Shown piece by piece: positions 1 to 64,000 of a stretch of DNA of 64,000 nucleotides. The translations under genes were made by a program, and so were the position numbers. Each line of letters opens with the position of its first letter. The stretch's first letter is position 1. The stretch lies in the UHGV virus genome UHGV-1882326; one strand, written 5' to 3'. Below the pieces are notes generated by a model. That model did no database searches and was not told the DNA's origin. It saw only the letters and a list, made by a program, of their open reading frames with translations. This DNA comes from a virus.

Positions 1-423
1 ATTCCTAATGTTTCTGATAAAGAATTTTTCACAAACTCAATTCATGTACCTGTATGGAAAGAAATGACACCTTTTGAAAAAATTGATATAGAATCACAAT
101 TAACTGGATATAGTTCAGCAGGTTCAATCACTTATGTTGAATTATCTGGTTCTGTAAAAAATAATATAGAAGCATTGGAAACTATTGTAAAATACGCAAT
201 GGAAAAAGACATTCCTTATTTTGCTGTTAATGTACCTAATGATATGTGTGCTGATTGTGGATATACAGATGAAATAGGAGAAGCTTGTCCTATTTGTGGT
301 GGTAAGCATATAAAAAGATTAAGACGAGTGACAGGTTACTTAACAGGGGATTATACAACAGCATTTAACAAAGGCAAACAGCAAGAAGTAAAAATGAGAG
401 CAAAACATATGAAATTTAAATAA
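1..423 (+). CDS. nrdD: Anaerobic ribonucleoside-triphosphate reductase, C-terminal fragment (5' end lies outside the window)
   Basis: The frame is open from nt 1. It contains a C-terminal zinc ribbon (CADCGY...CPICGG) followed by a glycyl-radical-like RVTGYLTG motif, and nrdG lies directly downstream. Confidence 0.8.
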   Translation: MPNVSDKEFFTNSIHVPVWKEMTPFEKIDIESQLTGYSSAGSITYVELSGSVKNNIEALETIVKYAMEKDIPYFAVNVPNDMCADCGYTDEIGEACPICGGKHIKRLRRVTGYLTGDYTTAFNKGKQQEVKMRAKHMKFK

Positions 424-34060: not shown

Positions 34061-34723
34061 TTACTCAGCTTCAATTCCCACGAAATTAATTCCAGTAAGT
34101 TCACCAAGTTTTACCAGAACATTTGCGTCTACATCAATACCTTGAACACGCTTATTCTTAATCATTTCGATAATAGTTTCCTTCTGACCTCTTGGAGCCA
34201 TATTATAAAGGTCAATGATTTTGTTAGCATCATTCTTAAAAATATTTTCAATAACTTCTGGTGGTAACATTTTGTTATATTCAGAAGTTTTTCTTAATTT
34301 TCTAACAACTTCTTCGTCAACAATATAGAAATATCCCTCGTTAGCAAATCTCTGATTATGCTGTACAATATCTTTTAAATCACCAAAAGGAATATCTATA
34401 ATCTGTCCAAAATCAGTAAAAGTATAAATATTTCCCTGTCCTTTACCTTGTGTTGCAAGATTTAATTCACCTTGACACATACTGACTACAGGAACCTCTG
34501 TTTCAAGATAATTGTAAAATCTATCGTTACCATACGGTACAGATTGAGTAACAGCTTGCGACTTAACTTTGCCCTCTAAGTCATTGAGTCTACCCATAAG
34601 TGCTTCAAACTGCTCTGTAGTAAGTGTTACCGTATTTGTAGATTTTTCTTCTACGTTTTCTGTTACAGCTTCCTCAACAATAGGTGTTGTAGCAGTCTTT
34701 TTTGCTGTTTTTGCGGTTGCCAT
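34061..34723 (-). CDS. Hypothetical structural protein
   Basis: 220 aa. Confidence 0.45.
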   Translation of the reverse strand: MATAKTAKKTATTPIVEEAVTENVEEKSTNTVTLTTEQFEALMGRLNDLEGKVKSQAVTQSVPYGNDRFYNYLETEVPVVSMCQGELNLATQGKGQGNIYTFTDFGQIIDIPFGDLKDIVQHNQRFANEGYFYIVDEEVVRKLRKTSEYNKMLPPEVIENIFKNDANKIIDLYNMAPRGQKETIIEMIKNKRVQGIDVDANVLVKLGELTGINFVGIEAE

Positions 34724-40402: not shown

Positions 40403-41389
40403 TCATTGATTTCGTGACCGCTCCGCAGAATCAGAAATGGCTTCTTCACTTTGAGGTCTACCAACTTGTCCACTACCCCCACTCATGGTATGAATAGACA
40501 AAAGTTGTGATAAATTGTCTAAGAAATCACTATTATGTGCTTCTTCCAACATTCTCTCAAAATCCATAGGTTTATATCCAAAAGCAGAAGCATAAGCACT
40601 TGAATTAAGCACCATACCCACATCTGCTAATTTCATAATAGCATCTTGCTTCTTTTTACGCCAAAATGGTTGTGTACATCCATCAAACGTAAACTTAAAC
40701 TTAAATTGTTTAGTTTTCTGATTAGCATAGAACTCTAAGAAATTGTTAAATTGAGTATATAATTTAGCTACAATCTCATAATCAGCAGTAATAGCCGCTT
40801 GAAGTTCTTCGTTTGACATTCTATCCGTAGCGTAAATTAAACGGCTTGCAGAACTACCATATCCCACTGTATCTTTAGCGGCAGTAGTAGCCATATCCGT
40901 ATTTTTATCCTCAAACTGTTTAAATTCAACTTCTTCAAGAGGTAAGGCAATAGAACGAACAATTTTATCTTGTGTCATAGAGTTTTTCAATCCACTAGCA
41001 ACAAGTTTCATTAATCGTCCTAATGTACTTGGTTTGACTGCAAATCTATCAGCAACCTCACCAGATTTTGCAGAATCTTGCATTTTCATCTCACCGTAAA
41101 GTATACCAAAAGCACTGGCAATATCTTTATTTTTTTGTAACTTTGCAATCTCTGTGTTATTGAAAACATTCTTTAAATACGGAGCCATAAAAGGAACACT
41201 TGCAAAATTACTTGTGTCAAACTTGAAAGCCCAGAAACCATCATTAGGACTTGTCTGGTGATAAAGAGTAAAAGTGCCGTCACGATTACTTAAACCATTT
41301 GACGGAATATAATCTTTAAAATCTTTACCATCCCATACTTCTCTAAGGTATTTCTTAAACACAGGAGCATAACACTGAACCTCACATAA
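40403..41389 (-). CDS. Portal protein, 3' exon (downstream of the IStron)
   Basis: The frame is open from 41389 and stays in frame with exon 1 if the intron ends at the G at 41390. The track ORF starts at a GTG at 41362. Confidence 0.5.
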   Translation of the reverse strand, partial: LCEVQCYAPVFKKYLREVWDGKDFKDYIPSNGLSNRDGTFTLYHQTSPNDGFWAFKFDTSNFASVPFMAPYLKNVFNNTEIAKLQKNKDIASAFGILYGEMKMQDSAKSGEVADRFAVKPSTLGRLMKLVASGLKNSMTQDKIVRSIALPLEEVEFKQFEDKNTDMATTAAKDTVGYGSSASRLIYATDRMSNEELQAAITADYEIVAKLYTQFNNFLEFYANQKTKQFKFKFTFDGCTQPFWRKKKQDAIMKLADVGMVLNSSAYASAFGYKPMDFERMLEEAHNSDFLDNLSQLLSIHTMSGGSGQVGRPQSEEAISDSAERSRNQ

Positions 41390-41478
41390 CTAAAATTACG
41401 TAATTCTTGGGAACTTCCAACTATTGTCAGAATATTTGCCAAGCTAACCCCGTAGTTCCTACGGTTTTTATATATTAT

Positions 41479-42603
41479 TTAAACACTTAAAATTCTCAAT
41501 CCTTCATTCAAAATATTAATAGAAGCATTATTATCTCTATCTAATTTTGAACCACAGTTAGAACAAATCCAGTATCTAATCTCAACAGACTTTTTACCAC
41601 CATTAACACCACAACAATGACAAATTTGAGAAGAAGGAAAATATCTATCAATTACAGATAATATCTTTCCATACCATGTAGATTTATAAGTCAACATTCT
41701 ACGAAATTCAGACCAAGAAACATCATTCACATGTTTATTACGAACATTTGAGTCTGTACTTTTCATAGATTGAACATCTAAATCTTCAATACAAATAATA
41801 TCATATTGTTTTACAAGATTAGTAGTCAATTTCTGTAAAAAGTCTTTACGTTGATTAGATATATGTTTTTGTAAATTTGCAACTTTAATTCTTGCTTTAT
41901 TCCAATTAGAACCACCGATTGTTTTTCTCAATAACTCTCTTTGTAATTTAGCAAGTTTCTTTTCTGATTTTTCATAAAATCTAGGATTTTTAATCTTAAC
42001 ACCGTTAGATAAAATTGCAAAATCTACAATTCCTAAATCTATCCCAACATTTTTATTTGTTTTTGGATATTGTGGAAATTCTATATCAGCGCAACATAAT
42101 GAACAATAATAATGTCCGTTAGGTTCTTGTGATATAGTAGCATTAAGTATTCTTCCTTGCGGAATTTGTTTATCGCGAATTTTTACACAACCTAATTTTG
42201 GAAGTTTAATATGTTTATTTTCAAATCTTATATTACCACCAGCTGTAGTTTTCATATAACTTGTAGTATAAGATTGATATCTATTTTTCTTAGACTTAAA
42301 TTTTGGATACCCAGTATGCTCTTTAAAGAATTTTTGATAAGCATTATCTAAATTTTTTAATGAATTTTGTAAAGAACATTTATCTGGTTCTTTAAGCCAT
42401 TCATTTTCTTTCTTTAATTGAGTAAGCATTTTACTTGTGTCATAAAAGCTTAAACTCTTTTTATTTTCTTTATACTCAGTTATCTTTTTATCTAAAAAAT
42501 AATTATAAACATATCTACAACAACCAAAAGTTTTTTGTATTAATTCTTGTTGTTTTTTATTCGGATAAATTCTATACTTAAAAGCTTTTTCCAACAATAT
42601 CAC
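41479..42603 (-). CDS. tnpB: TnpB (IS605 OrfB family RNA-guided nuclease-like transposon protein)
   Basis: It has the YRIYPNKKQ N-terminus, RuvC-like D/E/D motifs and a C-terminal CxxC...CxxC zinc finger. The likely start is the TTG at 42597, which follows AGGAAG. Confidence 0.85.
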   Translation of the reverse strand: MILLEKAFKYRIYPNKKQQELIQKTFGCCRYVYNYFLDKKITEYKENKKSLSFYDTSKMLTQLKKENEWLKEPDKCSLQNSLKNLDNAYQKFFKEHTGYPKFKSKKNRYQSYTTSYMKTTAGGNIRFENKHIKLPKLGCVKIRDKQIPQGRILNATISQEPNGHYYCSLCCADIEFPQYPKTNKNVGIDLGIVDFAILSNGVKIKNPRFYEKSEKKLAKLQRELLRKTIGGSNWNKARIKVANLQKHISNQRKDFLQKLTTNLVKQYDIICIEDLDVQSMKSTDSNVRNKHVNDVSWSEFRRMLTYKSTWYGKILSVIDRYFPSSQICHCCGVNGGKKSVEIRYWICSNCGSKLDRDNNASINILNEGLRILSV

Positions 42604-43171
42604 TTCCTTTCATAAATTAACTTATAACATAAACCTATATAAATGTCAAGTTAAATTATGAAAAGAATTATTTTAGTTTAAATAACATATAAAAACCGTA
42701 AGTTACTTTAGTTATATTTGGAGGTTGTCGTTCACATAGGCTCGCTAGTTCCTATGCAGTTCTCTAATGAACTTCTTGTACTTTCATACAAGCACAGACT
42801 ATATCTTATCCCTCACCATTATGTGTTAGGGCCTACCCACTTCCACACGCTTGTGTGTACTTCCCTCAAGAGGAATAGTCGTTGAAGTTTTCCTTTCGGA
42901 CTTACCTGCTAATTGCCTATTTTTCAGTGTTTAGGATTTAACCATGCACCATTCATTCAATTTTTTCTACTTTCGTCACATTCACGCTTATACCATTTAA
43001 GCACATTTTTGTGTTGTTTAAGGTATTACGTTGTAGTTTGAATGACTTTAAGGTTTCCTAGCAATTCAAGTAGTATTGGATGCCAAAAGCATCTCTACGT
43101 GCAAGTTTCCCTACACGCTGACTATTTCGTAAAACACTTACTTATTCATACGAATATGTATTCACGATTTA
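42604..43171 (-). ncRNA. Group I intron ribozyme portion of the IStron
   Basis: On the minus strand an R-like element lies at 42887-42874 (ttcaacgactat) and an S-like element at 42810-42796 (gataagatatagtct). They form the P7 pairing GACTA/TAGTC, with P8 and P9 hairpins between and after them. Confidence 0.55.
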
Positions 43172-43813
43172 ATCAATGTCCACTCCTTGCATACCAATGA
43201 AGTACATCATGTCGAAGTCGAATAATAAACCACTTTCAAAATACCCAGTTAAAATACATCTATCTTGTGGTAATGTTTGCAGAGCATATTTAGGATTATT
43301 TCTATCCATGTTTGTTCTGAAACTTGTATAATGTACTTCATGCCTTAAAAGCTGTTTTACAACTTTTTTAAATTCTCCTTTGTAATCAAAATTATCAAGA
43401 AATTTATAAATTCTTGCTTTATCTGCTTTATAATTATCAGACTTATAATCTTCTTTCTTAGCGTTCTTACAAGTAATCTGCAAATCAAAAGAAAGGAGAT
43501 TTGTGTAGTATTCAATAGTTCTGTTATAAATCATATCGAATACTTCCATAAACTCACTATAAGCCTGTAAATTTGTAGCACCAGTTTTATACTCACTTAA
43601 AGCCTTTATAATATCGTCATATTTTGGAATTTTAGCATTATTGTTAAGATTAACCAGATTTTGATTACTTAACCATGGACTATATACTCCAAAACTATCC
43701 AATCCATATAAACTCTGAGCAAAACTTACTACATCATAAACCTGTTGTTCTGATAACATAACAGGTTCTTCTACTTTAGGAGTTAATCTTTGACTATTTT
43801 TCGTAGTTCTCAT
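43172..43813 (-). CDS. Portal protein, 5' exon
   Basis: It lies immediately downstream of TerL. The 214-aa ORF stops at a TAA that is the first intron triplet. Confidence 0.5.
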
Positions 43814-43884
43814 CTCCTTTCTTCAAATATTTTTTATTTAAAGGCAGTCAAATCATAGCAGTTGATAAGACCGCCTATATACAC

Positions 43885-45765
43885 TTAGAACACAAGTTGG
43901 TCTAACTCATCTAAATTGGTATCTCTTTGTTCATCTACAGCATACTTATCGCCTATTAAGGTTGCAATATGGTTTCCGTAACTCAAAGCTACAATTTTAT
44001 CCTTTGTCGCACTATTTCTGTTAGGTTCTGATAATTTCAAAATACCGTTATTCCATGTTTGAGTTAAACTAATAGCTTCTGACATCATTAATGCAGTTTG
44101 AACATATGGCAACTTAATATTAACTTTTTCCTCAGAACTCATAGTAAGATAATTTACATCTTCTTCAAGTTCTGTTTCAATCGTTAATTCATCCACCAAA
44201 AATTCAATCATTTCATTGTCTAGGGCTTTCTTTAAATCAAGCCACATTAAACTATTTCGTTCACTTGTACCAACAATAGGTATAATACATGGTATAGCTT
44301 CTGCATCAACTGTTTTGCCTTTAAGTTCTTGAATTTTAGCATCTGGAACTATCTGTAAAGCAGATTCATAACAAACTGTAAATCCATGTGGATTCCAATT
44401 ACTTCGTGATGGGTGTTCAAAGGGTTTAGATAACTCTGTATAATAAAGAGTACCACCGCTTCTTTCGTCCATTACGATATAATCTGCTTGGTAATCCCAA
44501 AAGAACTCTCTAATCTTTTGTTGAAATCCCTCACTATCACTAGCAGGGTGCGTTCCAATATATTCTACTTTTCGTCTTGTCTTACCATCTTTCATAATGA
44601 CAGACATACAACCAATAACACTATTATCGTTATCGTTTGTATTGCTGTTTACAAAAGCATAATCAATGAAAAGTAAACGTTTTTCAAATTCACCTTTAGG
44701 TCTGTTACCTAAATCAGTTGACATAAATATATCCATAGGCGTAGGTGGTTTATAGGCTTTTTTTATCACTTGATTCTTTCTGAAATCTTCAAGTAAGAAG
44801 AAAGCACCCTCTGTTTCACCATACATTTCATTCAAATCTTCTGTTACAAAGTCAATATCTGAATCAAATTCTTTATCATGCCAGTAATCAGCCCATGTTT
44901 TAAGGTTAAATAAAATTGCAAGGAAAATATTAGATGCAAAGAAATTATATGTATGTTTCGTTTGTGTCATACACTTTTGAACTACAAGTTTAAATTCTTT
45001 CCAAAACCATTCATGTTTAAATCTAGCAGATGTAATATATGCTGTTTTACACTGTTCAATCCAACGTGGTAATGTTTTTCCGTCTTTATCCTTGTATTCG
45101 TCACGTAAGGTATAAGCCGCTTGTCTTGGATGCGCCATTTTAGAAAATACAGAATCAAGTATTGTCTTTTTAAGTAATCGACACTCTTCATATATAAGAA
45201 AAGTACTTCTCTCTCCCCTACTTGATTCCAAACAAGGCAATACAGTTATCATACTTCCGTTAATCTTTTTCAAGTCTACTTCTATAGCATCATTATTATA
45301 ACGAAAGACAATATCTCCGTTATCATAATAATATTTTAAAACAGATGAAAGTTTTTTACATAATTCATCTTCCATTTTCTTTTTAACCATCTTAGTAGCT
45401 TGGGGAATTGTGGAAGAAGTAATAACAACTTCGGCATATGGAAATAATAATGCGTGAACCATTCCTGCAAGAGCAATAATAAATGATTTACTTCCACCTC
45501 TGCTGCAAATTCCATACCATACTTGTGATATTCCAACTAAATACAACATAACATGCTGAAACGGATAAAGTTTTATCTTTAATCTTCTTTCAGCATATAT
45601 ATTCCAATTACGTCTATAGAATGTTGTCCATTCCTTAATATTTTTCTTTCTTTGTTCCCATGGTAATCTTCTGTCAGTTTTTTTCTTTTCTTCTTGTTTC
45701 TTCTTTCTTTTTTCTACAAGGCTAATAATATCTATATCTTTGTTTTCCTCTAACATAGACATCAC
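43885..45765 (-). CDS. terL: Terminase large subunit
   Basis: 626 aa with Walker A GICSRGGSKS and nuclease-domain acidic residues, positioned before the portal. Confidence 0.8.
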   Translation of the reverse strand: MMSMLEENKDIDIISLVEKRKKKQEEKKKTDRRLPWEQRKKNIKEWTTFYRRNWNIYAERRLKIKLYPFQHVMLYLVGISQVWYGICSRGGSKSFIIALAGMVHALLFPYAEVVITSSTIPQATKMVKKKMEDELCKKLSSVLKYYYDNGDIVFRYNNDAIEVDLKKINGSMITVLPCLESSRGERSTFLIYEECRLLKKTILDSVFSKMAHPRQAAYTLRDEYKDKDGKTLPRWIEQCKTAYITSARFKHEWFWKEFKLVVQKCMTQTKHTYNFFASNIFLAILFNLKTWADYWHDKEFDSDIDFVTEDLNEMYGETEGAFFLLEDFRKNQVIKKAYKPPTPMDIFMSTDLGNRPKGEFEKRLLFIDYAFVNSNTNDNDNSVIGCMSVIMKDGKTRRKVEYIGTHPASDSEGFQQKIREFFWDYQADYIVMDERSGGTLYYTELSKPFEHPSRSNWNPHGFTVCYESALQIVPDAKIQELKGKTVDAEAIPCIIPIVGTSERNSLMWLDLKKALDNEMIEFLVDELTIETELEEDVNYLTMSSEEKVNIKLPYVQTALMMSEAISLTQTWNNGILKLSEPNRNSATKDKIVALSYGNHIATLIGDKYAVDEQRDTNLDELDQLVF

Positions 45766-48599: not shown

Positions 48600-49889
48600 A
48601 CCTTACACTCCTAGTGAACTACTACAAAATTAAAAACCTCGTAATTTCTTGCTTCAACGTCCTCGTAACCTACTAACTCCACAAGCGTAAATTCCGATAG
48701 TTCCTACCGTACTATTTATTATTAAGTTGCACTTAAAATTCTTAGTCCTTCATTTAATATATTAATTGCGGCATTAATATCTCTATCATGCACAGTACCA
48801 CATTTAGAACATCTCCACTGACGTACAGATAAATTCTTTGTATCTTTATTAATATAACCACATACATTACAAGGTTGACTTGACTTTGTAAATCTATCAA
48901 TCTTTATATATGTGCGTCCATTCCAATCAGATTTATAACTTATCTGTCTTGTCAATTCATACCAACCACAATCAAGTATTGATTTTGAAAGATTATGATT
49001 TTTCACCATATTAGAAATTGCTAAATCTTCACTAACTATTACTTGGTTTTCGCTAATAAGTTTATATGAAATTTTATGCAAATAATCTATTCTGGTATTT
49101 TTAATTTTTTCATATACTTTTGCAAGTTTGATTCTTTGCTTCTGATAATTCTTACTACCTTTTTCTTTATGAAAAAGTTTACGCTGTTCTTTAGCAAGTT
49201 TTTTCTCATATTTTTTAGTAAGTTTAAGATTATCAAACTTTTCTCCATCAGAAGTTATAAGTAAATCCTTAATGCCTAAATCAATTCCAATAGAATTGTT
49301 TGTATGCTCTAATGAAATATGTTCTGTTTCTATTAAAATAGATACAAAATATTTACCAGAGGGAACTTGCGAAATAGTAGCAGATTTAATTTTTCCAGTA
49401 AATTCTCTATGAATTTTTGCTTTCACCCATTTAAGTTTTGGAAGTTTAATTTTATTGTTATCAAAAGAAACTTCAATATTATTATTTGCGAAATTTGTTT
49501 TATAAGATTTTTTATTATCTCGTTTGCTTTTGAACTTTGGATAACCAGTATGTTCTTTAAAGAATTTTTGATAAGCGGAGTCCATATTATAAATGGAATT
49601 TGTCAAAGACCATTTATCAACCTCTCTAAGCCATTCATATTCTTTTTTTAGTTGTCTATTACAATAGTTATTCAAATCAATTTTACTCATAGAAACACTT
49701 TCATTTTTATATTTATTGATTTTAAGATTTAAACACTGATTATAAACAAACCTGCAACAGCCAAAAGTTTTTTGGATTAAAATTTTTTGTTCTTTGTTTG
49801 GATATAATCTGTATTTATAGGCTTTTAACATTTACTTATCACCTCCAATCTATTTATATTATATATTCTACTACATTTTCATTAACTTG
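48600..49889 (-). mobile_element. IS200/IS605-family TnpB-only element (copy 2)
   Basis: It has its own TTGACA-17-TAGAAT promoter. Its right end is homologous to the IStron right end (gtaggaacta...agaa(a)ttacg...taatttt(g)tag). Confidence 0.5.
48722..49831 (-). CDS. tnpB: TnpB (IS605 OrfB family)
   Basis: It has the MLKAYKYRLYPNKEQ N-terminus, a RuvC-like core and a C-terminal zinc finger CNVCG...CSKCG. Confidence 0.85.
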   Translation of the reverse strand: MLKAYKYRLYPNKEQKILIQKTFGCCRFVYNQCLNLKINKYKNESVSMSKIDLNNYCNRQLKKEYEWLREVDKWSLTNSIYNMDSAYQKFFKEHTGYPKFKSKRDNKKSYKTNFANNNIEVSFDNNKIKLPKLKWVKAKIHREFTGKIKSATISQVPSGKYFVSILIETEHISLEHTNNSIGIDLGIKDLLITSDGEKFDNLKLTKKYEKKLAKEQRKLFHKEKGSKNYQKQRIKLAKVYEKIKNTRIDYLHKISYKLISENQVIVSEDLAISNMVKNHNLSKSILDCGWYELTRQISYKSDWNGRTYIKIDRFTKSSQPCNVCGYINKDTKNLSVRQWRCSKCGTVHDRDINAAINILNEGLRILSAT

Positions 49890-50564
49890 TCAACCATTTT
49901 CATGCAATTTCTTTAAATTTTCTATTATTAAATCACCGACAACAGCCCAACAAAAGTATTTATTCTTATTCTGCCCATAACATAAATCAAGCATAATATT
50001 AACAAGTCTGTCTTTGTTTGGACAAATTTCTTCTGCTCTTGCTCTAAATTCATGCTGTATGCTCATTACTCTTATATTTGCTTCTTCTGTACTTAAATTT
50101 TTCTCAATCACAATTTTCTTAAATTGCTTAATACGTTTAATGTATTCTTTTTCAAGATTTTCAATATCTTCTCTTGTTTTAGGTGAACTTCTTTGAATAG
50201 GAGATTTAAGAAATTCATAATCAAAGCCTTTGGCTTTAAGTTCTGTCACTCTACCATCAAATTCACTTTCTATATATCGACAAATTCGGTTCATAGTAGA
50301 ATCAGAAATGTTTACAGGCATTTTTATATCGTACCATTCTAAAAATTTTTGCTGTTCTTCTGTAAGATTTTGTTTTTTTCTTAGTTCATTTACTTTACAG
50401 CCATAAAGCATAACACATTTAAGGTCACAATTTTTTATATAACTATCGTAATCTTTCTTTAAAGAAGAATAATTATAAATAAAGTAATAAGGCTTTTTAT
50501 CTGTTACGATTATTTTATCTAATGTAGTGGTACATAATTTTGAAACATACCAATACTTAGGCAT
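49890..50564 (-). CDS. Hypothetical
   Basis: 224 aa. Confidence 0.45.
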   Translation of the reverse strand: MPKYWYVSKLCTTTLDKIIVTDKKPYYFIYNYSSLKKDYDSYIKNCDLKCVMLYGCKVNELRKKQNLTEEQQKFLEWYDIKMPVNISDSTMNRICRYIESEFDGRVTELKAKGFDYEFLKSPIQRSSPKTREDIENLEKEYIKRIKQFKKIVIEKNLSTEEANIRVMSIQHEFRARAEEICPNKDRLVNIMLDLCYGQNKNKYFCWAVVGDLIIENLKKLHENG

Positions 50565-50568
50565 TTCC

Positions 50569-50781
50569 TTACATACAATTCCTTTTAATTTCCTTTATAC
50601 CCTCTGTCACCAGATATTTATTGGGGGAGTAGACTATCTCTTCACTTAATATTTCTATTAAGGTTCGGCACTTCCAAACAAGGACTTTCACCTTGAATGT
50701 ACTGGTTTCATAATCTTTATACAAAGACCGTATACCATAGTCGTTACACCGTTCAAAAACGTCACCGTTTAAGCTTGGCAC
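50569..50781 (-). CDS. Hypothetical small protein
   Basis: 70 aa. Confidence 0.35.
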   Translation of the reverse strand: MPSLNGDVFERCNDYGIRSLYKDYETSTFKVKVLVWKCRTLIEILSEEIVYSPNKYLVTEGIKEIKRNCM

Positions 50782-50793
50782 GATATTGAGTTA

Positions 50794-51597
50794 TTACAAA
50801 TATAAGCTAAACAATTCTTTTTGTGGAGCATATTCTCCATAATATTCTTTTTCAGCTATAAGTCTTGTTTTTATAGCTTCTTCTTTTGTATCAAATCTTC
50901 CTAAATTTATTCTTTTATAATTATACCCTATTCTAGCTATCCATTTATTTTCTCTCTTATTATAACAAACACCAGAAACACCAGAAGTATTATTTTTATG
51001 TGTTGAAGCATTTTTCGCATTTTCGCTAGGAGAACAAATTCTTAAATTATTTTCTGTGCAATCATAAGTATTTCTATTTATGTGGTCTACAATTTTATCT
51101 TTCATTATTCCATTTGTTTTTGCAACTTCCACATCTTTAAAATATATTAATCTGTGTAATATTAAATTTTCTCTTGTTTCTCCTTTTTTGTTTCGATTAT
51201 CTCCTAAATGCGCTCTGGCATATTTTTTATATGCGAACCAATAAAATTGAGAAACCAACTCATAATTTTTTAAATCTATTTTTACTTTTTCTAATGAATT
51301 ATTAAAACATAAGAAGCAGTAATCTTTTCCTTCTGGAAAAATATATTTATTTTCTTTTTTACGGCTTTCTGAAATTTTATTTCTTCTTTCTAAATTTCTT
51401 TGTTCTTTATTGCACTCACAATCTATAATTTTATTATTATTAAGATAAGTTCCTTTTATTGCTTGTACTCTACCACATAATTTACATTCACAGTCAAAAT
51501 AGGATATTTTATTTTTACTACTTAATTCTTCGTTTATTTTTATTACATACCATGTATCAAATGTTAAGCCTTCTAATTGTAATCTCTTATTTGACAT
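50794..51597 (-). CDS. HNH homing endonuclease with a C-terminal AP2 DNA-binding domain
   Basis: The HNH motif is VDHINRNTYDCTENNLRICSPSENAKN. The AP2-like segment is SGVSGVCYNKRENKWIARIGYNYKRINLGRFDTKEEA. Confidence 0.7.
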   Translation of the reverse strand: MSNKRLQLEGLTFDTWYVIKINEELSSKNKISYFDCECKLCGRVQAIKGTYLNNNKIIDCECNKEQRNLERRNKISESRKKENKYIFPEGKDYCFLCFNNSLEKVKIDLKNYELVSQFYWFAYKKYARAHLGDNRNKKGETRENLILHRLIYFKDVEVAKTNGIMKDKIVDHINRNTYDCTENNLRICSPSENAKNASTHKNNTSGVSGVCYNKRENKWIARIGYNYKRINLGRFDTKEEAIKTRLIAEKEYYGEYAPQKELFSLYL

Positions 51598-51708
51598 AAT
51601 CTCCTTTCTTTATATTTTATAATAACTCTTCCATCGTTAGCAAGATTTTTATAATCTCACACCCTATATTTATAGGTTCACCGAATTTTACTTGAACTCA
51701 ACAAAAAG

Positions 51709-51996
51709 TCAATCCAAGGTATTTTGCTGATATAACTGCCCACACAAAATACGTTTTGATAATTCTTTATATTCATTAGTGTTTTCATTAAATAAAGCCA
51801 ATTTATCTATTTGTGCTGATACTCTATTAGTGATTGTTCCAACTTCTGAGCCTAAACCCATACGGTTACTTTTTCTAATATCATTTCTTTTAACAACTTT
51901 CTTCTCGCCTTTACGTTGCACACAATCAATAGAATTTGTATATCTGTAAGTATTTAAAAGTATATTATTATTCGTGGAATAAATTGTGTCACTCAT
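51709..51996 (-). CDS. Hypothetical
   Basis: 95 aa. Confidence 0.4.
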   Translation of the reverse strand: MSDTIYSTNNNILLNTYRYTNSIDCVQRKGEKKVVKRNDIRKSNRMGLGSEVGTITNRVSAQIDKLALFNENTNEYKELSKRILCGQLYQQNTLD

Positions 51997-52201
51997 TATT
52001 ACCGCCTATTTCTAGGTACTTTAACATTGATTTAACAATCGGTTTAGGTCATATCATCATAGTTTAAAACTATGGAAGGCACTTCGATTTAAAGGAATTT
52101 CACCTACTATATTGCTATAGCCCTACTTCTATTGCTCTGTTTAACGACTGAGCCAAGGAATGACCGTCTGACTTTTATAAATATTTACATTACTTTTTTA
52201 A

Positions 52202-52771
52202 TCAATAATTCCAAATTTCTCTAGTTACAACTCTTTTAACCAAATTCCATTTATTCTTTTGTTTTCTATAGGTATCTAATTCTGGATGCATAATTCTTAC
52301 TATTTCCATTACGGTTTTACCTTCGTCATATAATCTTCTTATTTTCTCTACATCTTCACCTGTATATTTTGCTCTACCATTATTTTCACCTTGTCTACCC
52401 TTACAATAAGTTTCATAATTATTTTTAATAGTATAAGCAATATTTTCAACATGTGTTATCCATTCAAGATTTTCAAAATAACTATCTGTTCTTATAAAAT
52501 TTTTATGATTAACTTCTAAAGGTTCGTCTGTTTCTGGTTTTGGAACAAATACCATAGCAACAACACGGTGTACAGTTATAGACCGTCTATTTTTAAGATT
52601 GCCTAATGTTACTATTGGATAACCGTCTGGATTTAGTCTTTGTTTGACCATTCCTCTTTCTGGTGCTATAATTCTTCCGTAATTGCTTACTTTATATTTT
52701 AGCCCATTAAATTCCCAATCTTTCCATTCTTCTGGCTTTCTTTTAGGGGTTAATCTTTTTGAATTTTTCAA
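52202..52771 (-). CDS. HNH endonuclease (NUMOD4-like N-terminus + HNH_3)
   Basis: The N-terminus has YKVSNYGRI and the HNH region is VHRVVAMVFVP...EVNHKNFIRTDSYFENLEWITHVENI. The start is TTG after AAGGAGG. Confidence 0.7.
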   Translation of the reverse strand: MKNSKRLTPKRKPEEWKDWEFNGLKYKVSNYGRIIAPERGMVKQRLNPDGYPIVTLGNLKNRRSITVHRVVAMVFVPKPETDEPLEVNHKNFIRTDSYFENLEWITHVENIAYTIKNNYETYCKGRQGENNGRAKYTGEDVEKIRRLYDEGKTVMEIVRIMHPELDTYRKQKNKWNLVKRVVTREIWNY

Positions 52772-62830: not shown

Positions 62831-62904
62831 GGAACAATATTTCAACTGGTTAGAAAGTTCGGCTCATAACCGAAAAGTTATAGGTTCGAGTCCTATTTGT
62901 TCCA
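62831..62904 (+). tRNA. tRNA-Met/Ile2 (anticodon CAU)
   Basis: It forms a cloverleaf with acceptor GGAACAA/TTGTTCC, D-stem TTTC/GAAA with a GG loop, anticodon stem TTCGG/CCGAA with loop CTCATAA, and T-arm ATAGG-TTCGAGT-CCTAT. The discriminator is A. Confidence 0.75.
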
Positions 62905-63156: not shown

Positions 63157-64000
63157 ATGTTGGTAGCATACAAATACAGATTGTATCCGAATAAAGAACA
63201 ACAAGAATATTTTGCTAAATGTTTTGGGTGTGTACGATTTATCTATAATCGTATGCTTTCAGATAAGATTGACTATTATAAAGAAACAAAGAAAAAGCTG
63301 AATAATACACCTGCTCAGTACAAGAAAAAGTTTGAGTGGCTAAAAGAAGTAGATTCACTTGCATTAGCAAATGCTCAAATGCTCAAATGAATTTGCAGAC
63401 AGCCTATAACAATTTTTTCAAATGTCCAGAAGTGGGTTTTCCAAAATTCAAAAGCAAGAAGAATAATCACTTCTCTTATACTACAAATAATCAGGGAGGA
63501 AACATTTATGTGACAGACCGATACATAAAACTCCCTAAGATTGGACTTGTTAGAGTTCGGAAACATAGAGATTTTGAAGGACTAATTAAGTCTGTTACTA
63601 TTTCTAAAAGTCCGTCTGGTAAATACTTTGTTTCAGTATTAGTAGACCAAAAAGATAAAGAAAAATTAATTCCAAACAATAACCAAATTGGAATTGATTT
63701 AGGTATTAAAGAATTTTGTATTACTTCTGATGGAGAGATGATTCAAAATCCAAAGTTTCTTAGAAAGTCTGAAAAGAAATTAAGAAAATTACAAAAGGAT
63801 TTATCTCGTTGTCAAAAAGGAAGTAAAAATAGAGAAAAATGCAGAATTAAAGTCGCAAGACAACATGAAAAGATTGCAAATCAACGTAAAGATTTTCTAC
63901 ATAAGTTATCTAGGCGATTTATTAATGAAAACCAAATCATTGCATTAGAAACTTTGAAAATTAAAAATATGATGAGTAATCATAAATTAGCAAAATCAAT
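63157..64000 (+). pseudogene. tnpB: TnpB (IS605 OrfB family), copy 3, frameshifted by an 8-bp tandem duplication and running off the window end
   Basis: MLVAYKYRLYPNKEQQ is intact to 63390, where a stop appears inside the tandem repeat ATGCTCAA ATGCTCAA (63371-63386). The TnpB frame continues from 63388 to 64000 as NLQTAYNNFFKCPEVGFPKFKSK...GIDLGIKEF.... Confidence 0.7.

Follow-up and report, generated by a model that had tools for sequence, protein, structure and literature searches.

IStrons, in which a group I intron is combined with an insertion-sequence-type tnpB gene, have been known since 2000, and their splicing, transposition and RNA-guided cutting were dissected between 2023 and 2026 in Clostridium and in E. 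coli reconstitutions. They fall into groups A and B, which are defined by features that include the target, the terminus and the splice-site base (PMC4227781). Group A IStrons, typified by CdISt1 of Clostridioides difficile, are inserted after TTGAT, ATTAT or TTTAT and terminate in TCAG, and an inverted repeat (IR) stem-loop, with compositionally balanced stems of 6–10 base pairs (bp) in this group, encloses the open reading frame (ORF) (PMC4227781). A missing TnpA transposase is common among described IStrons (PMC10690162, PMC4227781), and the C. difficile IStrons are also without a full-length TnpA (PMC10690162). The ωRNA (omega RNA) is located at the right end of the element and takes its guide from the sequence flanking that end (PMC10690162, PMC13565253), and a given transcript can either be spliced or give rise to ωRNA, not both (PMC10690162, PMC13521648), an antagonism shown experimentally for CboIStron (PMC10690162, PMC13521648). 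IStrons on phage genomes are already on record, namely CbISt3 and CbISt4, which belong to group B and are IS607-type (PMC4227781). The present analysis concerns a stretch of 64,000 nucleotides (nt) from the virus genome UHGV-1882326, referred to here as the window, in which the gene for the portal protein is interrupted by such an element. It is very likely that this is a group A IStron encoding TnpB only, carried in the portal gene of a gut-metagenome phage of ~100 kilobases (kb), for which splicing, ωRNA formation, cleavage and homing would be expected. The element itself is no discovery; its setting and its relatives are the subject of this report.

All genes in this region of the window lie on the minus strand, and the IStron is oriented as the portal gene. 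Portal exon 1 (43172..43813, minus strand) comprises 214 codons in the ORF list and ends in ...GAC ATT GAT. With its stop codon the ORF runs from 43813 to 43169, the 3′ end reading GGA GTG GAC ATT GAT TAA, and it therefore stops at GGAGTGGACATTGAT|TAA, exactly where an earlier note on this DNA had placed the interruption. Portal exon 2 (40403..41374, minus strand; 323 codons plus stop) begins with the codons TGT TAT GCT, and 104 nt of non-coding sequence separate the end of tnpB from the downstream portal ORF. The predicted spliced portal protein has 537 amino acids. When the joined product was compared with PHROG portal family 2739, a single continuous match ran over the junction (residues 62–537, E 8e-37), and the product is collinear, at 73–74% identity over 99% of its length, with the uninterrupted portals of the Enterocloster phages PMBT24, CB457P1/P2 and CB473P1-3. 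PMBT24 is described as a virulent siphovirus with a genome of ~100 kb (PMC11035940). A scan of IMG/VR with the corrected product returned contiguous 537-residue portals that are 99–100% identical to it (contigs L003-L007 and L011), and an exact-match look-up of the 214-residue exon-1 product returned no record. The two flanking ORFs are thus halves of one portal protein, as the earlier note had proposed, and the alignment of the joined exons that it called for is continuous across the junction once five extra residues, LCEVQ, are removed. One practical consequence is that gene callers will give the portal of this phage as two fragments.

The limits of the element were fixed by eight empty-site alleles, and a separate occupied copy is present in L102, an 11-kb scaffold from an independent ENA metagenome. 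The complete IStron occupies 41375..43171 on the minus strand, a total of 1797 nt from TAAATCG... to ...GTGAGGTTCAG. On the 5′ side the junction reads ...GACATTGAT|TAAATCG with the exon ending at 43172, and the insertion lies directly after the pentamer TTGAT (43176..43172), as first noted. This pentamer (43172..43176, minus strand) is at once the target site, the TnpB-adjacent motif (TAM), the 5′ exon strand of ribozyme helix P1 and the source of U-1 at the 5′ splice site. Eight related phage contigs with an uninterrupted portal, which share 91–97% identity with the window around the site, read precisely GAT|TGTTATGCT at the junction; in blastn alignments with these alleles, the window up to 43172 runs straight into the window from 41374, and at the GAT|TGT join nothing is duplicated and nothing is lost. 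Homologues read GVDID|CYDPIFKKYL across the same junction. The 3′ end of the element is therefore ...GGTTCAG, of which the terminal G (41375) is the predicted 3′ splice site, and the predicted ligated exons read GGAGTGGACATTGAT^TGTTATGCTCCTG, also written GGAGTGGACATTGAT^TGTTATGCTCCTGTG. The earlier note had ended the element at ...AATTTTAG (41390); the empty alleles and the TCAG terminus move that end 15 nt further, to ...GTGAGGTTCAG at 41375. Its claim that exon 2 stays in frame with exon 1 holds, with the reading frame resuming at 41374 and not after 41390. This error could not be seen from the sequence alone because both positions keep the reading frame.

The 568-nt block between exon 1 and tnpB (43171..42604) has no minus-strand ORF, as described before. 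Its depiction as unusually GC-rich is right in so far as it lies above its surroundings, the excess being modest (33.8%, or 38% in the Rfam match, versus 31.2% for the window and 25.9% for tnpB). A search of 41200..43400 against Rfam gave a match to the full Intron_gpI model (RF00028) at 67.1 bits (gathering score 50, E 2.6e-16), with the ribozyme core from P2 to P9 at 42775..43141 on the minus strand (model positions 1–253). This is the covariance-model search that had been suggested as a check on the intron, and its alignment bears out the individual elements that had been picked out by eye, namely R-like TTCAACGACTA (42886..42876) and S-like AAGATATAGTC (42807..42797), which form P7, followed by P8 and P9 in the expected order. 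At the RNA level, the R element UUCAACGACUA (J6/7 and the 5′ strand of P7; 42876..42886, minus strand) aligns to the consensus UUCAaAGACUA, and the S element AAGAUAUAGUC (the 3′ strand of P7; 42797..42807, minus strand) aligns to the consensus AAGAUAUAGUCu; each has one exact occurrence in the window. Short R and S motifs are by themselves not beyond chance expectation in the window; it is the covariance-model score that carries the intron call.

Conservation of pairing was analysed with RNAalifold on 11 aligned copies from which the tnpB ORF had been removed, drawn from five phage lineages, three bacterial copies and two C. difficile copies. The consensus contains P1 (exon UGAU and the intron start with ...UAGUCA), P2, P3 and P4-P6 with extensions, together with P7.1/7.2, P8, P9 and P9.1/9.2. 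The 95 core pairs are 97% paired over the 11 copies, and compensatory changes occur in 33 of them as opposed to 1–5 in slid controls; helices overall are 94–100% paired, compared with 20–60% when the 3′ partner is slid by 1–3 columns. P1 pairs 43175..43161 with 43133..43119 (RNAalifold helix −3..11/39..53, 94% paired, compensatory changes in 4/12 pairs). Within it the internal guide sequence GUCAG (43118..43122, minus strand) pairs with exon UUGAU, leaving a U.G pair at the splice site. Members of the family share the sequence AAATAGTCAG at the internal guide, apart from variants in L003/L006 and in L015-L018; in the latter four copies the guide reads GUCCG, which places a C x C mismatch in P1. 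The ribozyme is 76–77% identical in nucleotide sequence to C. difficile IStron copies over positions 45–503.

On these grounds and on comparison with its relatives, the element is assigned to the group A (CdISt1-type, IS200/IS605-type) IStrons, as a TnpB-only member. It has a 5′ ribozyme, TnpB on the same strand, TTGAT with U as the last exon base, a TCAG end and an IR stem, and its TnpB is 57–59% identical to those of C. difficile, so that the likeness to CdISt1 drawn in the earlier note is upheld. When the genome collection was scanned with TnpB, dozens of C. difficile loci were found at this level of protein identity, with other relatives in Romboutsia, Mediterraneibacter, Eubacterium and others at 59–78%. 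The closest match in that collection (L019, CAAGHO010000013.1, from the 'Bacilli bacterium' metagenome-assembled genome (MAG) HGM10839) has a TnpB that is 94% identical; it is a 20-kb piece of phage DNA with an IStron at the terminase site, identical to the IMG/VR contig L004 over the shared region. A host was not assigned from this bacterial MAG, since the contig is itself phage DNA, and its presence in the MAG may point to the host or may be an error of binning. TTGAT|TAAA... on the left and GAGGTTCAG| on the right are shared by the Romboutsia copy, the checked C. difficile copies and three other bacterial copies. The GAGGTTCAG terminus is conserved in all of the 20+ copies examined, and TTGAT abuts the bacterial and most phage copies, the exceptions being TCGAT (L015-L018) and GTGAT (L099). 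Some TnpB relatives have the same right end and no ribozyme, and are plain IS605 elements.

The tnpB gene (41479..42603, minus strand) has 374 codons with a GTG start, the true start possibly being a nearby TTG. Its position after the ribozyme block, on the same strand, is as previously read, and the product contains all three TnpB Pfam domains (HTH_OrfB_IS605, OrfB_IS605 and Cas12f1-like_TNB, E 1e-21 to 1e-27) and matches phrog_506 at 1e-127. The nearest solved structures are those of ISDra2 TnpB (8H1J/8EXA), which are matched over the full length (E 1e-95). Residues D189/E273/D357 align with ISDra2 chain positions 191/278/361 (D191/E278/D361), which we take from the ISDra2 literature to be the RuvC catalytic residues, and the CxxC...CxxC zinc finger is intact (CHCCG...CSNCG). 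The ratio of non-synonymous to synonymous substitution (dN/dS) among phage copies is 0.09–0.28, which indicates that tnpB is under purifying selection. Upstream of the gene and inside the IR loop lies the promoter-like sequence TTGACA, 17-nt spacer, TGT-TATAAG (42621..42649, minus strand); the same layout is found in L004, and L020 has TTGACA-17-TATAAT. A promoter for tnpB is thus plausible, and of the earlier statement that the gene has its own promoter the consensus-like sequence at 42649..42621 stands. The scan tool did not list this site because its rule accepts only T as the sixth base of the second hexamer.

The tnpB gene is enclosed by an IR stem of 27 bp, the 5′ arm of which lies at 42676..42702 and the 3′ arm at 41458..41484 (both minus strand). 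The arms were found as a blastn self-match and form a duplex of −50 kcal/mol in RNAduplex; over the 11 copies the stem is 96% paired, with compensatory changes in 7/27 pairs. It is longer and more AU-rich than the 6–10 bp reported for group A, and the alignment suggests that C. difficile copies can also extend theirs. RNAalifold on the same 11 copies places two further long-range helices outside this stem. The 5′ strands (42705..42726, minus strand) are AACCUC (42726..42721) and AUAACUAAAGU (42715..42705), and the 3′ strands (41375..41396, minus strand) are AUUUUAGUUAU (41396..41386) and GAGGUU (41383..41378), followed by CAG with the terminal G at 41375. The AUAACUAAAGU/AUUUUAGUUAU helix is 96% paired with 2/11 compensatory pairs, and AUUUUAGUUAU is the degenerate sequence of the right-end TnpA hairpin. 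The AACCUC/GAGGUU helix, three nucleotides before the 3′ splice site, is 100% paired.

The right end (41375..41520, minus strand) is also the predicted ωRNA scaffold, and comprises the hairpin CCGUAGGAACUACGG, a CUUGG...CCAAG stem and the degenerate TnpA hairpin. The hairpin right end previously noticed is present, with CCGTAGGAACTACGG directly 3′ of the tnpB stop codon. The CUUGG/CCAAG stem has 4–5 compensatory pairs, and the right end is 76–84% identical in nucleotide sequence, over 100 nt, to intron-less IS605 relatives. No ωRNA family was matched in the Rfam search of 41200..43400. From the IS605 TnpB mechanism, the predicted ωRNA guide, and thereby the target in the empty allele, is TGTTATGCTCCTGTGTTTAA, the first 20 nt of exon 2 (41355..41374, minus strand). 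The 3′ arm of the IR stem shares sequence with the tnpB stop codon and with the 5′ half of the CCGUAGGAACUACGG hairpin, and the right-end hairpin supplies a strand of the middle helix; because of these overlaps the intron fold and a local ωRNA-type fold would be mutually exclusive, and on this structural model the two could not coexist in one molecule.

Two other observations were made at the right end. A weak match to the Rfam family Ref70 ('Enterococcus sRNA 70') covers 41381-41470 on the minus strand (29.4 bits, gathering score 115, E 0.015), the alignment taking in the CCGUAGGAACUACGG hairpin and the CUUGG/CCAAG stem; Enterococcus sRNA 70 may itself be an RNA from an IS605 or IStron right end, that is, an ωRNA. 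On the plus strand, the right-end hairpin followed by TTTTTATATA (41450-41464) is the sole site resembling an intrinsic terminator in 41200-44000. It is antisense to the IStron and is probably a by-product of the hairpin and the A-rich IR arm.

No match to TnpA was found in the window at E <= 0.1 when family TnpA sequences (L023, L024, L036 and L051) were used in tblastn, and the phage copies all encode just TnpB, which is intact everywhere but in L017, where a 1-nt indel truncates it to 307 amino acids. The sites at which TnpA would act are still discernible in the relatives. L004, L019 and the C. difficile copies carry the same subterminal palindrome GTGACTTTAGTC(A/G)TG near both ends, at the spacing expected for IS200/IS605 TnpA sites. 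An 11-nt deletion has cost the window copy its left-end hairpin, which these relatives keep as GTGACTTTAGTCGTG, and a C>T change has turned the right-end hairpin TAACTTTAGTTA into TAATTTTAGTTA; the DNA hairpin is broken by this change, whereas the long-range RNA helix keeps a G.U pair. Subterminal palindromes at both ends, a group A feature, are thus wanting in the window copy and retained in sister copies, which reads as decay of one copy and not as exclusion from the group A family. The left palindrome is also gone from L015-L018, where an AT-rich hairpin stands in place of the first ~100 nt (locus ~2257-2360), and from L099, in which P1 is cut to a minimal loop, so that TnpA hairpins have decayed independently in three copies (deletion in the window, replacement in L015-L018, minimal P1 in L099). 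Lacking both a TnpA gene and the left-end TnpA hairpin, the window copy is probably no longer a transposon.

Copies of the IStron that are 88–99% identical occur at six sites in phage genes of related contigs of ~60–105 kb. These sites are portal A, with the junction DID|CYA after TTGAT (window and L102); portal B, 39 nt upstream of portal A and after TCGAT (L015-L018); the terminase large subunit, DID|FVTEDL (L004, L019); a 296-residue gene upstream of the terminase, NLI|AGT (L003, L006); a 220-residue structural-region gene that is a homologue of 34061..34723, IID|IPF (L101); and a Sipho_Gp157-like gene, after GTGAT (L099, L100 and 15 similar places). At each of the five sites checked the copy lies inside a reading frame that precise removal restores, and all phage copies follow TTGAT, TCGAT or GTGAT.

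The window genome is empty at four of the six sites, and at each it has a synonymous change in the pentamer (TTGAC, CTGAT, TCGAC and TAGAT). Among 24 empty alleles at five sites, 20 differ inside the 5-nt TAM and the remaining 4/24 are mismatched to the guide at position 7 or 9; none combines an intact TAM with a perfect guide-proximal match. The idea that empty alleles escape through TAM changes was examined by ranking the TAM against all other 5-nt windows within ±150 nt of the site, and the result was not significant (per-site p 0.09–0.46, combined p 0.098). It is retained as a trend only, also with regard to portal A, where the TAM looks newly created and not lost because the outgroup reads TAGAT (natural empty allele TAGAT-TGTTATGCTCCTGTGT). 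The trend is compatible with TAM-dependent insertion, TAM-dependent cleavage, or both.

Comparison of occupied alleles gives an indication of recent movement. L102 carries the same portal-A insertion as the window with the same left-end deletion, and the two sequences differ at 105 positions over 5 kb, distributed as 102/3218 nt in the terminase and portal exons and 3/1797 in the IStron (Fisher p 2e-16). The flanks have thus diverged by 3.2% overall (1.9–3.8% per segment) and the IStron by 0.17%, with 0 differences in the ribozyme or the right end, and beyond the element the two sequences first differ 25 nt upstream of one junction and 78 nt downstream of the other. Similarly, L015 and L018 differ by 1.2% in the IStron as opposed to 6.6% in the flanks, the first differences being 13 and 46 nt away. 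These tight pairs show the pattern expected from homing with short co-conversion tracts and fit recent homing. A homing signature in all occupied pairs was rejected, as it is tight just for window/L102 and L015/L018. A 2026 review states that intron homing by TnpB-only IStrons 'awaits experimental validation' (PMC13565253). We offer only tentatively, and with rather less than even confidence, the broader proposal that in this lineage of ~100-kb gut phages the IStron has turned from a transposon into an RNA-guided homing intron for which TnpA is not needed. The clues to it are the coding of TnpB alone, under purifying selection, by the phage copies, the repeated decay of the TnpA hairpins, the window/L102 comparison, and the altered TAM or nearby mismatch in the surviving empty alleles.

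The absence of TnpA, the 11-nt deletion of the left-end hairpin and the C>T mismatch in the right-end hairpin would also suit a dead insertion, that is, an IS605- or IStron-derived element that has inactivated the portal of a defective phage or prophage remnant, leaving no functional portal. We regard this as very improbable. Both exons are intact and their joint product is 99–100% identical to the portals of intron-less relatives; the ribozyme core scores above the Rfam threshold with its pairing kept; tnpB is under purifying selection; and the same insertion is present in an independent scaffold the flanks of which have diverged by 3.2% with the exons still open. Moreover, ~100-kb contigs carry sister copies in their terminase gene and in further structural genes.

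A different origin, in which an ordinary phage group I intron was later hit by an unrelated IS605-type tnpB element and the two have no joint mobility, is highly unlikely. Nested ORFs are frequent in phage group I introns, and phage CB457P2 has a conventional intron-type endonuclease gene between its terminase halves, beside a ribozyme-like stretch 75% similar to the window core. In the window, however, the outer boundaries are of IS605 type (TTGAT, TCAG, no target duplication) and are also the splice sites, the IR stem joins sequences on either side of tnpB that covary with each other, and the ribozyme, tnpB and right end have moved together to six phage sites and many C. difficile sites. The intron end at ...AATTTTAG (41390), with a junction ...ATTGAT^TTATGTGAGG and a portal containing LCEVQ, also ends in G, keeps the frame and is preceded by a TTTAG motif, and as an alternative 3′ splice site 15 nt upstream it may give a minor product, but as the true boundary it is hardly tenable, since the 15 nt are missing from all eight empty alleles and from all more distant homologues (none of which has LCEVQ), the family terminus is TCAG, and AATTTTAG is the counterpart of the conserved GACTTTAG within the right-end hairpin, internal in every copy.

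The favoured reading, a single group A TnpB-only IStron acting in the portal gene, can be set out as a model. The portal transcript would be interrupted after ...UUGAU, and the 5′ 470 nt of the element would fold as a group I ribozyme with P1 formed from exon UUGAU and the internal guide GUCAG. Because P1 uses the TAM itself, one ribozyme should be able to work at any TTGAT site. The composite helix (AACCUC/GAGGUU, AUAACUAAAGU/AUUUUAGUUAU and the 27-bp IR stem) would loop out tnpB and bring the terminal G of ...UCAG to the catalytic core, and splicing would join GAU to UGU, restoring the 537-residue portal. As an alternative fate, the same 3′ sequence would fold locally as the ωRNA scaffold, with the first ~16–20 nt of exon 2 as the guide. 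TnpB, expressed either from the promoter of its gene or from unspliced transcripts, would associate with this ωRNA and cut TTGAT followed by TGTTATGCTCC..., which corresponds to the intron-less portal allele (target TTGAT-TGTTATGCTCCTGTGT). Portal production would thus depend on splicing, and the ωRNA would compete with it, expectations drawn from homology, from conservation and from published work. For a phage, the intron-less genome in question would be that of a co-infecting relative, and the outcome would therefore be intron homing: in a co-infection, TnpB-ωRNA would cut the intron-less allele of the other phage and recombinational repair would copy the IStron in. The IStron would persist, and probably spread between co-infecting phages, as an RNA-guided homing intron.

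A number of results count against parts of this model. A cmscan of the whole 64-kb window against Rfam, in both gathering and E-value modes, missed the intron and reported just two tRNAs; a 67-bit intron is detectable when ~2 kb is searched and is lost to the Rfam speed filters at 64 kb, likely because of insertions, one of them ~110 nt, in its peripheral helices. Other introns in the window could escape default Rfam scans likewise. The AACCUC/GAGGUU helix has 0 compensatory pairs; it never varies and is therefore without covariation support. Folded alone, the right end is no more stable than shuffled sequence (z -1.3), and promoter-like hits in the region occur at chance expectation, with no excess. 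A P10 pairing of UGUU with AAUA was considered as support for the splice site at 41375 and dropped; nothing comparable is found at other insertion sites, and the pairing is probably coincidental. With respect to homing, the block of identity extends 0.4–1 kb beyond the IStron in two of four pairs (L015/L017 and L003/L006), and between L015 and L016 the IStron is as diverged as the flanks (5.7% versus 4.6%). The element can therefore diverge and these phages are generally mosaic, and such mosaicism is a confounder for the homing interpretation.

Further elements of related kinds are present in the window and in its relatives. A second TnpB gene at 48722-49831 (minus strand) encodes 369 amino acids, is 49% identical to the IStron TnpB and has all three Pfam domains; it has a promoter-like TTGACA-17-TAGAAT and lies directly after the ORF 49890-50564. 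A cmscan beside this gene (48722-49831) found no group I intron, and it is probably a plain IS605/IS1341-type element. A third TnpB homologue (63166-64000, plus strand; 45–50% identity) begins just downstream of the tRNA at 62831-62904 and runs off the end of the window; its tblastn alignment falls into two frames that meet near 63370, possibly owing to a frameshift. The interval 50565-52260 (minus strand) contains ORFs of the HNH homing-endonuclease type at 50794-51597 (HNH_3 and AP2) and 52202-52771 (NUMOD4 and HNH_3), and the ORF-poor stretches between them include GTAACGACTA and AAGAGATAGTC, which resemble R and S elements; AAGAGATAGTC lies at 50642..50632. The arrangement resembles a split group I intron with endonuclease genes inside it. 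A second group I intron at these HNH genes (50.5–52.3 kb), suggested by the R/S-like motifs and by TTGAT|TAAAAAAG...AGTCAG, was rejected when none of three local cmscan runs gave an Intron_gpI match. At the stop codon of the NUMOD4-HNH ORF (52161-52205, minus strand), TTGAT|TAAAAAAGTAATG...AAAAGTCAGACGG has the layout of the IStron TAM, TAAA start and AGTCAG internal guide; an IStron-related intron that has no IS part may begin here, a suggestion that the negative cmscan leaves unconfirmed.

Among the relatives, L002 (CB457P2, 1100-2310), L008, L009, L010 and L014 have an 'intron-associated endonuclease 1' ORF flanked by two hypothetical ORFs; in PMBT24 one terminase large-subunit gene occupies this position. 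Just upstream is a stretch 73–76% similar to the window ribozyme core (positions 182–335). From this arrangement, the terminase of these phages appears to contain a group I intron of the conventional kind that encodes a homing endonuclease.

The interest of the locus lies in its context, a group A TnpB-only IStron in the portal of a phage related to virulent Enterocloster phages, with sister copies in the terminase gene, in two further genes of the head region, at a second portal site and in a Gp157-like gene. One combined full-text literature search on IStrons in portal, terminase or major capsid genes gave no IStron paper in the ten results listed, which is weak evidence of absence. As failed splicing would be lethal in a portal gene, the balance between splicing and guide-RNA formation should face unusually strong selection here. 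The polymorphism at six sites, mostly in packaging and structural genes, together with the transfer signature offers a natural test bed for RNA-guided intron spread, and the occupied and empty alleles of the same sites in public metagenomes are material for testing TnpB-driven homing between co-infecting genomes.

Of the described systems, CdISt1 and the other C. difficile group A elements (Braun 2000; PMC4227781; PMC10690162) are closest. They have the same order of IA2-type ribozyme, IS605 tnpB and right end, begin with TAAA... and end in GAGGTTCAG, have splice sites that are the transposon ends and an IR stem around the ORF, and are without a full-length TnpA. The window element differs from them in residing in a ~100-kb phage and interrupting phage genes (for packaging, head and others), in its 27-bp AU-rich helix with two more long-range helices, and in the deleted left-end and weakened right-end hairpins of this copy. 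ISDra2 is alike in the RuvC D/E/D residues and zinc-finger cysteines of TnpB, the TTGAT target and TAM, and a similar right end; in contrast, ISDra2 has TnpA and no intron, whereas the window element has no TnpA and its left end is a ribozyme. The group B elements CbISt3 and CbISt4 (C. botulinum phages c-st and D-1873) and CboIStron share a long AU-rich IR stem with it, and CbISt3/4 are also phage-borne; however, group B is IS607-type, with a serine TnpA, GG-ending targets, a CGG terminus and G at the 5′ splice site, and the window element has none of these. Finally, the phage group I introns with homing endonucleases (T4 td/nrdB/sunY, Twort, SPO1-type and the CB457P2 intron with an I-TevI-like ORF) resemble it in presence/absence polymorphism and in a nuclease gene that is looped out. 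Their endonuclease is a protein-only enzyme, whereas that of the window element is predicted to be an RNA-guided TnpB, the specificity of which would be re-programmed automatically at each new site because it is set by the TAM and by the flanking exon that is copied into the guide.

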